From an uncultured bacterium (GTDB lineage Bacteria; Patescibacteriota; Minisyncoccia; UBA6257; 2-01-FULL-56-20), in contig OY970126.1 in the NCBI GenBank assembly GCA_963705915.1, forward strand, positions 408,616 through 472,615: a stretch of 64,000 nt of DNA, in the 5' to 3' direction. A program made the translations under genes and the position numbers. Numbering within the stretch: position 1 is the first letter of the stretch; each line of letters starts with the position of its first letter. The notes beneath the pieces are model-generated. The model was not told the DNA's origin. It worked only from the letters and a program-made list of their open reading frames with translations, and made no database searches. Below are positions 32,470 through 36,591 of the stretch, one piece after another.

Positions 32470-32720
32470 ATCGATCGGTCCTCCTCCACGAGAAATCGCC
32501 CCTGGTTATTCTTAAATTCCAAAAACCCTGAGCCTACCGGAATATAATGTTCCTGGCTCTCGTTGTCAATGATTTTCATCGTGCCGCGATCGAGAATCGC
32601 GATGAGCGGTTCATGATTCTGGAGGATCGTGATCTCCCCCATCTTCGTGCGGCAATTCACCTCGCGGGCTTCGCCCTGGTATAAAACTTTTTCGAGTGAA
32701 TAGACGCCGACATTCATCAC
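32466..32720 (-). CDS. atpC: F0F1 ATP synthase epsilon subunit (N-terminal beta-sandwich only)
   Basis: [43 protein letters not shown] pattern of epsilon; 84 aa. Confidence 0.7.
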
Positions 32721-34098
32721 ACGGTCACTTCTTCAATCGAACCTTTCAAATAGAAATTGTCTTCCGGCTTGTCGTCGTGACGGCCCTCCAAAATTTCTTT
32801 AAAGCTGCGGACGGTATCTTTGAGTGAAACATATTTGCCGTCACGGCCGGTGAATTGTGCGGCGACGAAAAACGGCTGCGAAAGGAACCGTTGGATTTTG
32901 CGCGCGCGATAGACGGTCTCGCGGTCGGTGTCGGAAAGTTCTTCGATGCCCAAAATGGCAATGATGTCCTGCAATTCTTTATAGCGCTGAAGTGTCTGCT
33001 GGACGTCGCGCGCAACATCATAGTGTTCCTGGCCGACGATCTTCGGATCAAGCGCGCTCGAGCTCGAAGCCAAGCGGGTCCACGGCCGGATAGATACCGA
33101 TTTCCGTCAGCGCGCGCGAGAGCACGATCGTGGAATCCAAGTGGCGAGAACGTCGTCGCCGGCGCTGGGTCGGTGATGTCGTCCGCCGGAACATAGATTG
33201 CCTGCACGGACGTGATCGAGCCTTTTTTGGTGGACGTGATGCGCTCCTGGAGCTCGGCCATTTCCGATGCGAGCGTCGGCTGATAACCCACGGCCGACGG
33301 CATACGGCCGAGGAGCGTTGACACCTCGGAGCCGGCCTGCGAATAGCGGAAAATGTTGTCAATGAAAAGCAAGATGTTCTTGCCTTCTTCGTCGCGGAAA
33401 TATTCCGCCATCGTGAGCGCGCGAAAGCGCAACGCGCGCGCGGGCGCCCGGCACTTCGTTCATCTGGCCAAACACGAGCGCGGTCTTGTCGATGACGCCC
33501 GATTCTTTCATTTCATTATAAAGATCGTTGCCTTCGCGCGTACGCTCGCCGACGCCGGCGAACACCGAGACATCCGCCGCCCACTTCGGCCACGTTGCGG
33601 ATGAGCTCCTGCAGCAAGACGGTTTTGCCGACGCCTGCGCCGCCGAACAATCCAACTTTTCCTCCTTTAATGAACGGGCAGATGAGGTCGATAACTTTGA
33701 TGCCGGTTTCAAAAACTTCCGTCTTCGTGGACTGGTCGGTGAACTTCGGCGCTTCGCGATGGATCGGCAAATATTTCTTGAACGGCTTCTTCGGCATCGT
33801 GAGCGGGCGGCCGAGCACGTCGAAGATGTTGCCGAGCGTCTCTTCGCCCACCGGCACTTCGATCATCTTGCCCGTATCCTCCGCTTCTGCGCCGCGATTC
33901 AAGCCGTCGGTCGGCGCCATGGAAATCGCGCGGACTTTGCCCGGCTCCAAATGCTTCACCACCTCGGCGATGATCTCGCCTTTGCCCAGTTTGATCTTGA
34001 GCGCGTTATAAATCGGCGGCAAGTATTGTGCCTTCGCCAAAATCGACGTCCACGACCGGCCCGATGACCTGCGTTATTTTTCCTGTTTTGTTTGCCAT
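32717..34098 (-). pseudogene. atpD: F1 ATP synthase beta subunit, interrupted by multiple frameshifts
   Basis: Conserved beta segments found in at least 5 different frames: [23 protein letters not shown] | [12 protein letters not shown]...[19 protein letters not shown] | [38 protein letters not shown] | ...[18 protein letters not shown] | [24 protein letters not shown] | ...[20 protein letters not shown]. Confidence 0.85.
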
Positions 34099-34117
34099 GG
34101 GTTTAATGAAAAAATAA

Positions 34118-35051
34118 TTATTGCATCGCCTGCGCACCGGACGTGACCTCGATGATCTGACTCGTGATCGCGGCCTGACGATTCTTGTTGTATACGACGT
34201 TTAAGGTTTCTTTGAGATCGCTCGCGTTATCCGAGGCGTTCTTCATCGCCACGCGGCGGGCAGAATGTTCGGAGGCGTTTGCTTCGAGGATCATGTGATA
34301 GATGCGAATTTTGAGAAGCTGCGGGTGCAAGCTCGGCGAGCACTTCTGCGGGCGATGGTTCGATGATGAAATCGGTTTCTTTGCCGTCAAAAAACGCTTC
34401 TGATTTTGCATATTCGGAATATCGGCCGGCACGCGGGATGGTGTCTTCAATTGATTCGCGTACTTTTTCGTAGCTGATCGGAAGAAACTCGCGAGCTACG
34501 GCATCTTGTCGCAAAGCCGTGACGAACGTTGTGAAAAATGCGATAACACTATCGAAATCATGACGTAAATATCCTTCGATGAGAACGTCGGCGATCGGAT
34601 CGGCCTCTTGCATCTTCATGAGGTCGCCAACACGCACAAACGATTGGATCACATTGAATCCTCGGCGCTCGAGATAGGTCTTTGCCTTTTGGCCGATGGC
34701 GACGAAAGAATACTTCGGATCGAGGAGGTCGATTTTGTTTTCGCGAAGATATGCCTCGAACCGGCGGATGACGGCGCCATTGAACGATCCTGCGAGGCCC
34801 TTGTCTGATGTCATCAAAAGAAATGCCGTATTTTGGATTGGCCGAGTTTTTAAAAGTTCTGGCATGGGAACATCTTCCATGTGCGAAAGCATACCAAGGA
34901 GCTCAAGCGCGGCATAGGCATACGGACGGGAATTCAAGGCGAGCTCTTGCGCACGGCGCATCTTGGTTGCCGCCACAAGCTCCATCGCCTTCGTGATGGT
35001 CCCGATATTCGTGACGCTTCGTATGCGCCGCTGGAGTGATTTGTCCGGATT
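34118..35051 (-). pseudogene. atpG: F1 ATP synthase gamma subunit, frameshifted near C-terminus and lacking a separate start (in frame with alpha C-terminus)
   Basis: SLQRRIRSVTNIGTITKAMELVAATKMRRAQE... in one frame; C-terminal [45 protein letters not shown] in another frame (shift near 34330); no stop between alpha C-terminal residues (FLKQVIW) and gamma N-terminus. Confidence 0.8.
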
Positions 35052-36591
35052 CCATATTACTTGTTTAAGAAATTTGCGATTGCGCTCTTTCAATGCGCTT
35101 TCGGTCTCTTCTTTGAAATCTCCCGTCTCGCGGATCGGTTTCAAAATATCGTTCTCGTGTAAACGGTTTAGATATTCGATGAAATGAGTTTCGGTATTTT
35201 TAATCTCTTCCACAGGCAATGCTTTCAAAGTAGTCATTTAGCACGGCGTAGAAAATGCACACTTGTTGTTCAACTGGCACCGGCGCTTGATCATCCTGCT
35301 TTAATATTTCGTTAATCTTTTGCCCTTGGGCAATGCGCTTTTTTGTGGCCTCGTCGACGTCGGTCGCGAATTGCACGAACGCCTGGAGTTCGCGGAATTG
35401 TGCATGGGCAAGCTTGAGTTTGCCGGCAACTTTCTTCATCGCTTTCGTCTGCGCGGCTGAACCCACGCGCGAAACGGAGATACCGACGTTCAACGCCGGA
35501 CGCTGGCCCTGGTTGAACAAGATCGGTTTCCAAAAAAATCTGCCCATCGGTGATGGAAATGATGTTCGTCGGGATGTATGCCGTCACGTCGCCGAGCTGG
35601 GTTTCAACGATCGGAAGCGCGGTGAGCGATCCCCCGCCTTTTTCTTTTGAAAGTTTTGCGGCGCGTTCAAGAAGGCGTGAGTGGAGATAGAAGACGTCGC
35701 CCGGATACGCTTCGCGGCCCGGCGGACGCTGGAGCAAGCAACGAAATCTGCCGGTACGCCCACGCATGCTTGGAAAGATCGTCATAGACGATCAACGCGT
35801 CCATTCCTTTGTCCCGGAAATATTCACCGATCGCGGCAGCCGGCATACGGCGCAAGATACCATTGCGCTGCGGGAGACGATGCCGACGCGGCGACGATGA
35901 TGGAATATTTCAACGCGTCGAACTTTTTGAGCGTTTCCGCGATCTTTCACGATCTTGGATTCTTTCTGCCCGATCGCAACATAAATACAAATCGGCGGTC
36001 CGGCGGCCGGTGTCGTTCTTTTGGTTCAAAATGGCGTCGAGTGCGATGGCGGTCTTGCCGGTGGCACGGTCGCCGATGATGAGTTCGCGCTGGCCGCGGC
36101 CAATCGGGATCATGGCGTCGATCGCCTTGATGCCGGTATGCACCGGCGTATCCACGCCTTCTCGTTCCAGAACGGACGGTGCCCGCGCTTCGAGGTTGTT
36201 CCGCTGGATCTTGCTGCCTTTTTTGAAAATTTCGCCCAAGCCGTCATGTGGTTCGCCCAAGGGATCCACAACGCGACCGATAAGCTCATCGCCTACCTCA
36301 ATCGAAAGCACTTCGCCCGTGCGCTTGACCGTGTTGCCGACCTCGATCGAAAGAAAGTCGCCAAGCACGAGCGCGCCGATGGATTCTTCTTCTAGGTTCA
36401 GTGCGAGCGCGGCCCGTTGCGCCTTTCTCCGTTTCAATCATTAAAATTTCCTGGCTGACGGCGTTCCGCAAGCCCAAGATTTTCACGATGCCGTCGCCCA
36501 CCTCAATCACGCGACCAATTTCGGCCCATTCGGGCTTTTCCTTATATCCTTCAATCTCTCGTTTAAGTTTTTCGATTATTTCGTAGGACAT
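35052..36591 (-). pseudogene. atpA: F1 ATP synthase alpha subunit, interrupted by at least 6 frameshifts
   Basis: Alpha segments in alternating frames: MSYEIIEKLKREIEGY...[11 protein letters not shown] | [17 protein letters not shown]...[34 protein letters not shown] | [33 protein letters not shown] | [30 protein letters not shown]...[12 protein letters not shown] | [31 protein letters not shown]... | LKALPVEEIKN...FLKQVIW. Confidence 0.85.

Follow-up and report, generated by a model that had tools for sequence, protein, structure and literature searches.

The F1 genes of the atp operon in the stretch of DNA analysed here (the window, 64,000 nucleotides) carry 15 extra single bases and, as deposited, the reading frames of atpA, atpG and atpD are broken. 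The extra bases are best explained as a consensus or polishing artefact that would have arisen from co-aligned reads of related populations; from the sequence, this reading is judged very probable, and in the true genome atpA, atpG and atpD are most likely whole. Since the extra bases most likely come from consensus building, a loss of ATP synthase should not be recorded for the organism.

The operon lies on the minus strand and contains genes for all eight subunits in the canonical F1Fo order (atpBEFHAGDC), syntenic with the relatives L081 and L083 (Table 1). Frame changes were called by a frameshift-allowing alignment of the DNA to the proteins of L081, where AtpA (508 aa), AtpG (311 aa) and AtpD (460 aa) are all intact. 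The original prediction had described at least 12 frame switches confined to these three genes; the confinement is borne out, and the count rises to 15 (eight in atpA, two in atpG and five in atpD), spanning plus-strand coordinates 36421 to 33071, i.e., ~3.4 kb. Each of the 15 is the insertion of one base (sign test, 2^-15 = 3e-5). No deletion, longer indel, codon indel or in-frame stop was found in the F1 genes relative to L081. The earlier description of single-nucleotide indels without accumulated substitutions holds, and can be made stricter: the indels are all insertions.

Table 1. Genes of the atp operon and the 15 single-base insertions, with insertion contexts given on the coding strand
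Feature	Position in the window	Strand	Remarks
atpB	38562-37789	-	single ORF
atpE	37750-37520	-	single ORF
atpF	37498-36998	-	single ORF; shift-free alignment to L081
atpH (delta)	37001-36609	-	single ORF; shift-free alignment to L081
atpA (F1 alpha)	36591-35057	-	508 codons + stop + 8 extra single nucleotides
atpG (F1 gamma)	35055-34118	-	311 codons + stop + 2 extra nucleotides
atpD (F1 beta)	34098-32717	-	458 codons + stop + 5 extra nucleotides
atpC (epsilon, 83 aa)	32717-32466	-	start overlaps atpD stop; intact
Insertion 1	36419-36421	-	atpA codon 57, GGC-G-CAA; loss of C or G leaves GGG/GGC + CAA, alternatively GAA (the codon of relatives)
Insertion 2	35992-35995	-	atpA codon 199, GCC-G-ATT; GCC/GCG synonymous, alternatively ATT/GTT
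Insertion 3	35944-35948	-	atpA codon 214, GTG-A-AAG; KIVKIAE restored by three deletions; relatives have GTG or GTA
Insertion 4	35838-35839	-	atpA codon 250, GGC-T-GCC; GGC/GGT; 6:6 split among the 12 closest relatives
Insertion 5	35735-35738	-	atpA codon 283, TTG-C-TTG; in-frame CTTG Leu context
Insertion 6	35518-35522	-	atpA codon 355, GAT-C-TTG; in-frame CTTG; relatives have TTG, CTC, CTT or CTG
Insertion 7	35214-35216	-	atpA codon 457, GCC-T-GTG; GCC/GCT synonymous
Insertion 8	35084-35085	-	atpA codon 500, GAG-C-GCA; GAG/GAC non-synonymous, variable column
Insertion 9	35039-35042	-	atpG codon 5, CAA-A-TCA; AAA run; Ser codon mostly AGC in relatives
Insertion 10	34322-34326	-	atpG codon 243, GCA-C-CCG; ELAPQLL restored by three deletions
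Insertion 11	34031-34036	-	atpD codon 22, GGC-GAAG-GCA; GAA/GAG synonymous; variable column
Insertion 12	33571-33573	-	atpD codon 176, GGA-TGTC-TCG (T[G]TC), just 3' of the GGCGGCGG run; TTC or GTC; Phe and Val codons both in relatives
Insertion 13	33421-33422	-	atpD codon 225, TCG-C-GCG; TCG/TCC; relatives have TCC or AGC
Insertion 14	33143-33145	-	atpD codon 317, TCG-C-CAC; TCG/TCC
Insertion 15	33071-33075	-	atpD codon 340, CCG-C-TTG; in-frame CTTG; VDPLASS restored by four deletions

Removal of the 15 bases yields full-length proteins of 508 (atpA), 311 (atpG) and 458 (atpD) codons. In the alignments to L081, which is the closest intact relative, 460 of 507 matched residues are identical in AtpA (91%, eight insertions), 266 of 311 in AtpG (86%, two insertions) and 432 of 456 in AtpD (95%, five insertions); the stitched AtpD is also 95% identical to P0001 and P0002. 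Walker A and other conserved motifs are present in the F1 fragments, and all of the conserved peptides quoted in the original prediction were found. At columns at least 97% invariant among 73-113 relatives, the F1 proteins of the window are altered in 0 of 494 cases; intact relatives show a mean of 0.5-1.1 deviations per gene at these same near-invariant columns.

Outside the F1 genes, atpB, atpE, atpF, atpH, atpC and the other large genes are uninterrupted, as first noted, being single ORFs or giving shift-free alignments. AtpC matches that of L081 over 82 aa (66 identical) with zero frame events, and a scan with probe proteins found no supported frame junction in 36609-38562, which holds atpB, atpE, atpF and atpH. 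LeuS, RecG, LepA, ThrS, MetG and IMPDH are encoded by one ORF each and give end-to-end matches to NCBIfam profiles; ValS is also one ORF, but without the C-terminal end of its profile. The scan used 7090 proteins of related loci as probes across the window and covered 32.1 kb. The well-supported frame switches in it all fall within 33070-36415, and every one shifts the frame by a net +1 nt, while the other ~28 kb under probe cover contains no well-supported switch. This disagrees with a uniform indel rate, which had also been considered: if the events were uniform over the 32.1 kb, finding all 15 in the 3.9 kb of the F1 genes would have P ~2e-14 by our own arithmetic. ORF-poor stretches elsewhere in the window were examined as candidate broken genes and rejected, being tRNA genes or artefacts of greedy ORF tiling. 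Anticodon loops are normal in all five of the window's tRNAs.

The original prediction is not supported in its first alternative, a true and ongoing loss of F1 in which atpA, atpG and atpD were frameshifted very recently, with Fo, delta and epsilon so far retained. Patescibacteria have a reduced metabolism and often lose genes of energy metabolism, the deposited frames are truly broken, and a second Paceibacterota MAG has a broken atp operon. However, bacterial gene decay is biased toward deletions, longer indels included, whereas all 15 events are +1 insertions. The intact protein columns, together with the absence of stops and deletions, rule out ordinary decay; even at one substitution per indel, ~4 hits in near-invariant columns would be expected by our own estimate. 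Drift of the whole operon would be expected after the first inactivation, yet all 15 events miss atpB, atpE, atpF, atpH and atpC (P ~1e-3 by gene lengths, own arithmetic). Moreover, a mutational process would not track synonymous codon alternatives as the sites described below do, and a parallel case, also described below, points the same way. Ongoing loss of F1 is thus improbable.

Run lengths speak against homopolymer slippage, which was rejected: the run of the inserted base is 1 nt at 17 of 27 sites (15 from the window and 12 from the second case, L026) and 3 nt at most. At least one shift had been assigned to the GGCGGCGG run near 33570, but the extra base there lies outside this run, just 3' of it, so that the run was rejected as the cause; most sites are off repeats and homopolymers altogether. 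No slippery motif is shared across the sites, which occur in at least 10 different four-base contexts. The GATC methylation motif lies near only a few of them. The sites lie mostly at degenerate codon positions such as GG[C][T], TC[G][C] and [C]TTG, where the codon left is synonymous whichever of two adjacent bases is deleted. At least two different deletions give the same best protein at 10 of the 15 window sites and nine of the 12 L026 sites, with a random-insertion null of 0.46, although this doubled-allele test is weak taken alone (P = 0.09 for the window and 0.04 for L026). Six of the 27 sites have an in-frame CTTG at a leucine codon, against an expectation of 0.5% (post hoc P = 4e-9). 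The 12 closest relatives carry one or other of the two candidate alleles at most sites, and the full pair at several. The pattern suggests, but does not prove, that two alleles were written in succession.

A GC anomaly (0.595 at 33-34 kb; atpD GC3 of 0.73 versus ~0.60 for the genome) was considered as a sign of foreign DNA and rejected; the atpD of relatives is also somewhat GC-richer.

Comparison with the atp operons of relatives had been proposed as a check. In ~110 relatives the F1 genes are uninterrupted and lack the shift sites of the window, and among 165 related loci the same cluster is encountered only in L026. This locus belongs to MFD02248.bin.2.6, a public species-representative MAG of another species, from a project that assembled solely Nanopore data, using metaFlye followed by a single Medaka round (PMC12313526). 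The atp operon of L026 has the same +1-only pattern, with 12 events in atpA and atpD; for the window and L026 combined, 27 of 27 events are insertions. The L026 insertions are at other codons than those of the window; they also strike the poorly conserved atpB, atpF and atpH, and skip atpG. Split-gene flags in L047 and L060 proved to be masked N runs, and the lone flags that several loci show around position 9,98x coincide with the atpA/atpG gene boundary; both were rejected.

Of the two explanations offered originally, the evidence favours the second, a locally error-prone stretch of the assembly, given the +1-only events, their link to codon degeneracy and the Nanopore-only parallel in L026. 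Tiles of the F1 genes match 46-130 related loci at nucleotide identities of up to 90%; most flank tiles match 0-17, and parts of atpE and atpB are intermediate (38-81). The F1 genes would be the DNA of this neighbourhood that is most alike among co-occurring Paceibacterota and, being the most cross-alignable, the place where reads from a related population could co-align at assembly or polishing. Where the populations differ, mostly at wobble positions that leave the amino acid unchanged and at CTN/TTG leucine codons, the caller would at some positions write both alleles in succession, and each such merge would add one base. The L026 hits in atpB, atpF and atpH are not predicted by a simple model in which only conserved genes cross-map. 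The window probably also comes from a long-read assembly; the sole other case among the 165 loci is a Nanopore-only metaFlye/Medaka MAG. Frameshifts caused by Nanopore consensus indels are a recognised problem (PMC9262707; PMC13543314); no paper on this exact merged-allele failure mode turned up in a search of the literature.

Neither DNA of the same species nor a second haplotype was recovered. The indexed collections held no exact match for the atpC (two starts), atpF, atpB, atpE and LepA proteins, scans of genomes and metagenomes with the gamma protein reached a best identity of only 86-87%, and no candidate for the second haplotype was found among the relatives. Mosaic ancestry was also rejected: the best relative switches from one inter-insertion segment to the next, but with short segments and relatives that are all ~80-90% identical this does not exceed the noise, and a parental haplotype did not emerge.

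A different artefact, in which random consensus errors result from a local drop in coverage or from one error-prone bridging read and not from merged alleles, is as improbable as a true loss of F1. It would suit localised events that are indels only, and low-coverage Nanopore bins do retain indels (PMC9262707). However, random long-read errors would bring deletions, mismatches and a homopolymer bias, whereas 27 of 27 events are insertions, sites lie mostly outside runs and are enriched at degenerate codon positions, and zero conserved residues are changed.

It is very unlikely that the extra bases are real both here and in L026, which would imply either a site-flexible +1 recoding or RNA-level correction in some Paceibacterota, or a mutational process limited to insertions that disables F1 and spares Fo. 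Least likely is recoding of real extra bases in the window by programmed +1 ribosomal frameshifting, four-base decoding or RNA-level base removal: the strict +1 direction with preserved coding capacity, the recurring C-TTG context and the presence of the pattern in two species would fit a tolerated recoding system, but the sites are conserved neither between the window and L026 nor in any of the ~110 intact relatives, the varied four-base contexts offer no common slippery motif, the old frame stays open for dozens of codons past the shift with no stop or pause site, inefficiency would compound over eight shifts in a protein that is both essential and abundant, no other gene in the 64 kb uses such a system, and the anticodon loops of the window's five tRNAs are normal.

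Merging of alleles during consensus building remains the favoured account, and it has consequences for annotation. Annotation of the deposited sequence at face value would record F1 alpha, gamma and beta as missing, which would lead to wrong conclusions on the energy metabolism of an uncultured Patescibacteria lineage and would also depress completeness and gene-quality scores. At least one public species-representative MAG (MFD02248.bin.2.6) has the same defect. Clusters of insertion-only, non-homopolymer frameshifts at wobble and leucine-codon positions in very conserved genes form a recognisable warning signature. The advice to be cautious before any bioenergetic inference stands, pending a check of the reads. 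If the bases were real, this would be a striking case of recoding or gene loss; the evidence points the opposite way.

Several known systems resemble the window in part. Poly(A) transcriptional slippage in Buchnera and Blochmannia likewise rescues frameshifted genes under purifying selection, but needs long homopolymer tracts, unlike the short runs at the sites here. Programmed +1 frameshifting, of the prfB type or at multiple +1 sites as in Euplotes, shares the need for a +1 shift per extra nucleotide; in contrast, the sites of the window are not conserved, have no slippery sequence in common and involve neither a stop nor a rare codon where the frame shifts, and up to eight of them fall in one gene of a single operon. 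Recent bacterial pseudogenes of reductive evolution also combine several frameshifts with high similarity to functional homologues, whereas the window lacks deletions, stops, substitutions of invariant residues and any spread to functionally linked neighbours. Classic Nanopore errors are found in homopolymers, are mixed or deletion-rich, and occur genome-wide at low coverage, while those of the window are insertion-only, mostly off runs, limited to ~3.4 kb and placed at positions of synonymous variants. The indel errors of Nanopore-only MAGs built with metaFlye and Medaka are alike in that single-base indels split otherwise conserved genes, and in L026 the pattern is identical.

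The F-type ATP synthase operon of the window, whose host is an uncultured member of the Paceibacterota (Patescibacteria), is of the standard atpBEFHAGDC type, with all genes present on the minus strand. The original prediction had reported a cluster of frameshifts in its F1 genes. In three-frame translation the alpha, gamma and beta sequences switch repeatedly from one frame to another, with every frame used; they contain the conserved peptides that had been quoted. A frameshift-tolerant DNA alignment to the proteins of the related locus L081 confirms and sharpens the cluster: there are 15 frame changes (eight in atpA, two in atpG, five in atpD), each a single extra nucleotide, with no deletions, indels of 2 nt or more, or codon indels in the three genes. 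L081 belongs to a JGI metagenome contig family (L081-L084) that is syntenic with the window and encodes intact atpA (508 aa), atpG (311 aa) and atpD (460 aa). The stitched beta subunit has at most 95% identity to any protein in a collection of 5.8 billion, its named matches being Paceibacterota or Minisyncoccia MAGs, and the gamma protein reaches 86-87%; the searchable collections yielded neither same-species DNA nor exact matches to window proteins.

Features of the operon, frameshift events and other observations (window coordinates unless a locus is named)
Feature	Position	Strand	Remark
atpB	38562-37789	minus	
atpE	37750-37520	minus	
atpF	37498-36998	minus	
atpH	37001-36609	minus	
atpA (alpha)	36591-35057	minus	
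atpG (gamma)	35055-34118	minus	
atpD (beta)	34098-32717	minus	
atpC	32717-32466	minus	
atpA events	about 36420, 35993, 35947, 35838, 35738, 35521, 35214, 35084	minus	L081 alignment
atpG events	about 35040, 34325	minus	L081 alignment
atpD events	about 34032, 33569, 33421, 33144, 33074	minus	L081 alignment
Insertion-only frameshifts, atpB through atpD	L026:6596-12949 (CAVRXN010000001.1 about 50423-56776)		
Isolated frame switches	L034:3486, L034:16356		MFD03726.bin.1.80 (Microflora Danica); homology-supported, one -1, one +1
ORFs of 174 aa and 59 aa	26887-27588	minus	same frame, one TAG (27064-27066) between
ORFs of 872, 762 and 503 aa	18832-21447, 46141-48426, 12027-13535		no NCBIfam matches at E <= 1e-10
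Four-tRNA cluster	42897-43331	Thr-CGT, Ala-GGC minus; Arg-CCT, Cys-GCA plus	tRNA-Arg shares 93% identity with its syntenic counterpart in related locus L001
tRNA-Glu region	52609-52643, 52746-52863, 52865-52937		35-nt partial copy of tRNA-Glu 3' end (83% identical, 247 nt from the tRNA); perfect 28-nt inverted repeat (62-nt spacer) between tRNA and copy

The events are confined to the F1 genes. None occurs in atpF, atpH or atpC in the L081 alignment, and LeuS, RecG, LepA, ThrS, MetG and IMPDH are uninterrupted ORFs, each matching its NCBIfam profile over the full length. ValS (56868-59060) is a single ORF matching positions 1-711 of the 863-position TIGR00422 profile, the C-terminal coiled-coil part being absent; it looks native rather than truncated, since the next gene lies on the opposite strand. 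A homology scan, run twice, used 7090 proteins of related loci as probes and covered 32.1 kb of the window; the frame switches that it supported well all fell at 33070-36415, each with a net gain of 1 nt. By our own arithmetic, the chance of finding 15 of 15 events within 3.9 of the 32.1 covered kb is about 2e-14, so the clustering is far beyond chance. ORF-poor stretches elsewhere are mostly tRNA genes or long ORFs missed by greedy tiling. Two stretches, 26.7-27.3 kb and 52.1-53.5 kb, are without a clear gene: 26713-27340 lacks long ORFs, and the alignment of the related locus L002 shows nothing equivalent; 52.1-53.5 kb has no convincing ORF, and the tRNA-Glu copy and inverted repeat within it may represent a small element or the scar of an integration.

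With the 15 bases taken out, atpA, atpG and atpD contain no in-frame stops and are 91%, 86% and 95% identical to L081. At near-invariant columns (at least 97% invariant across 73-113 relatives) the window deviates at 0 of 494 (184 + 101 + 209), the mean for intact relatives being 0.5-1.1 per gene.

Gene decay in bacteria is biased to deletions. A genuine, recent loss of the F1 sector, one of the two readings originally offered, is therefore hard to reconcile with an insertion-only spectrum; the lack of stops and of changes at invariant residues, the intact atpB, atpE, atpF, atpH and atpC (P about 1e-3 within the operon) and the tie of the sites to codon degeneracy make it improbable. The other reading, an assembly error, is supported by the insertion-only spectrum and the intact coding information, as well as by the tie to codon degeneracy, the confinement of the events to one region and the reappearance of the pattern in a Nanopore-only MAG (L026, below).

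Screening of 165 retrieved atp loci revealed split F1 genes besides those of the window only in L026, which is contig CAVRXN010000001.1 of MAG MFD02248.bin.2.6, a genome of the Microflora Danica long-read project. Two other flags traced back to stretches of masked N. Microflora Danica genomes were built from Nanopore reads alone, by metaFlye assembly and one Medaka round (PMC12313526). L026 has five +1 insertions in atpA and seven in atpD (12 of 12 events), and about five more across atpB, atpF and atpH; atpG has none, and no event beyond the operon is well supported. Its codon-boundary contexts are those of the window, yet different codons are hit; thus, the sites are not conserved, while the phenomenon recurs in a long-read-pipeline consensus. 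Together, the window and L026 (atpA and atpD) have 27 events with base-level resolution, every one an insertion (sign test, P about 7e-9, own arithmetic).

At these 27 sites the inserted base has a run length of 1 in 17 cases and of 3 at most; the sites are not homopolymers. Nearly all the sites fall on a codon boundary with two unlike neighbouring bases: whichever of the two is dropped, the reading frame returns and the codon is a synonymous one (GG[C][T], GT[G][A], GC[C][G], TC[G][C], GA[A][G], GC[A][C], [C]TTG). At least two distinct deletions give the same best protein at 10/15 window and 9/12 L026 sites, against 46% of simulated random one-base insertions, a difference that is weak taken alone (P = 0.09 and 0.04). 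At 6/27 sites a Leu codon is overlaid by an in-frame CTTG (CTG, CTT or TTG merged), with 0.5% expected (P = 4e-9, in a test chosen post hoc). Among the 12 closest relatives, at least one candidate allele is present at most sites and both at several (GGC/GGT 6:6; GTG/GTA; TCG/TCC/AGC; CTC/CTT/CTG/TTG); near 33570 they have Phe or Val codons. A different artefact, for instance random errors at low coverage, accounts poorly for 27 events that are all insertions at degenerate positions, and has only a slim chance of being correct. Genuine recoding, whether through +1 frameshifting, four-base decoding or RNA editing, is the least credible explanation, given sites without conservation, shared motif or pause codon (at least 10 different four-base contexts), eight of them in a single essential gene, none in any other gene of the 64 kb, and five window tRNAs that look ordinary.

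That the extra bases are an artefact of some kind is very probable, and most likely the organism itself does not have the frameshifts; it is very unlikely that the bases exist in the genome, and only in that case would they be remarkable. The specific mechanism that we somewhat favour is the merging of alleles: reads of two related populations would co-align across the conserved F1 genes; the consensus would then hold both alleles in tandem at some of the variable positions, one base being added per merge. In the 30-40 kb region of the window, the F1 genes are the DNA most broadly alignable to other Paceibacterota: each 300-nt F1 tile finds matches in 46-130 loci, with identities of up to 90%, and flanking tiles mostly in 0-17, with parts of atpE and atpB intermediate (38-81). 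Reads of a related, co-occurring population could be recruited here during assembly or polishing. We infer both this read-level mechanism and the technology behind the window. A weak point of allele merging is that in L026 poorly conserved genes are struck too, whereas atpG escapes. Nor did a second haplotype turn up, segment-wise nearest-relative analysis being within noise.

Frameshifting indels are a general problem reported in long-read MAGs (PMC9262707, PMC13543314); no published description of allele merging was found. The pattern can serve as a quality-control signature; a public MAG that is a GTDB species representative (MFD02248.bin.2.6) has the same defect. The window lesions lack the defining features of decaying pseudogenes, programmed +1 frameshifting, poly(A) transcriptional slippage and classic homopolymer long-read errors. 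They come closest to the consensus errors of long-read metagenomes, of which they form an unusual sub-type, insertion-only and located at variant sites.
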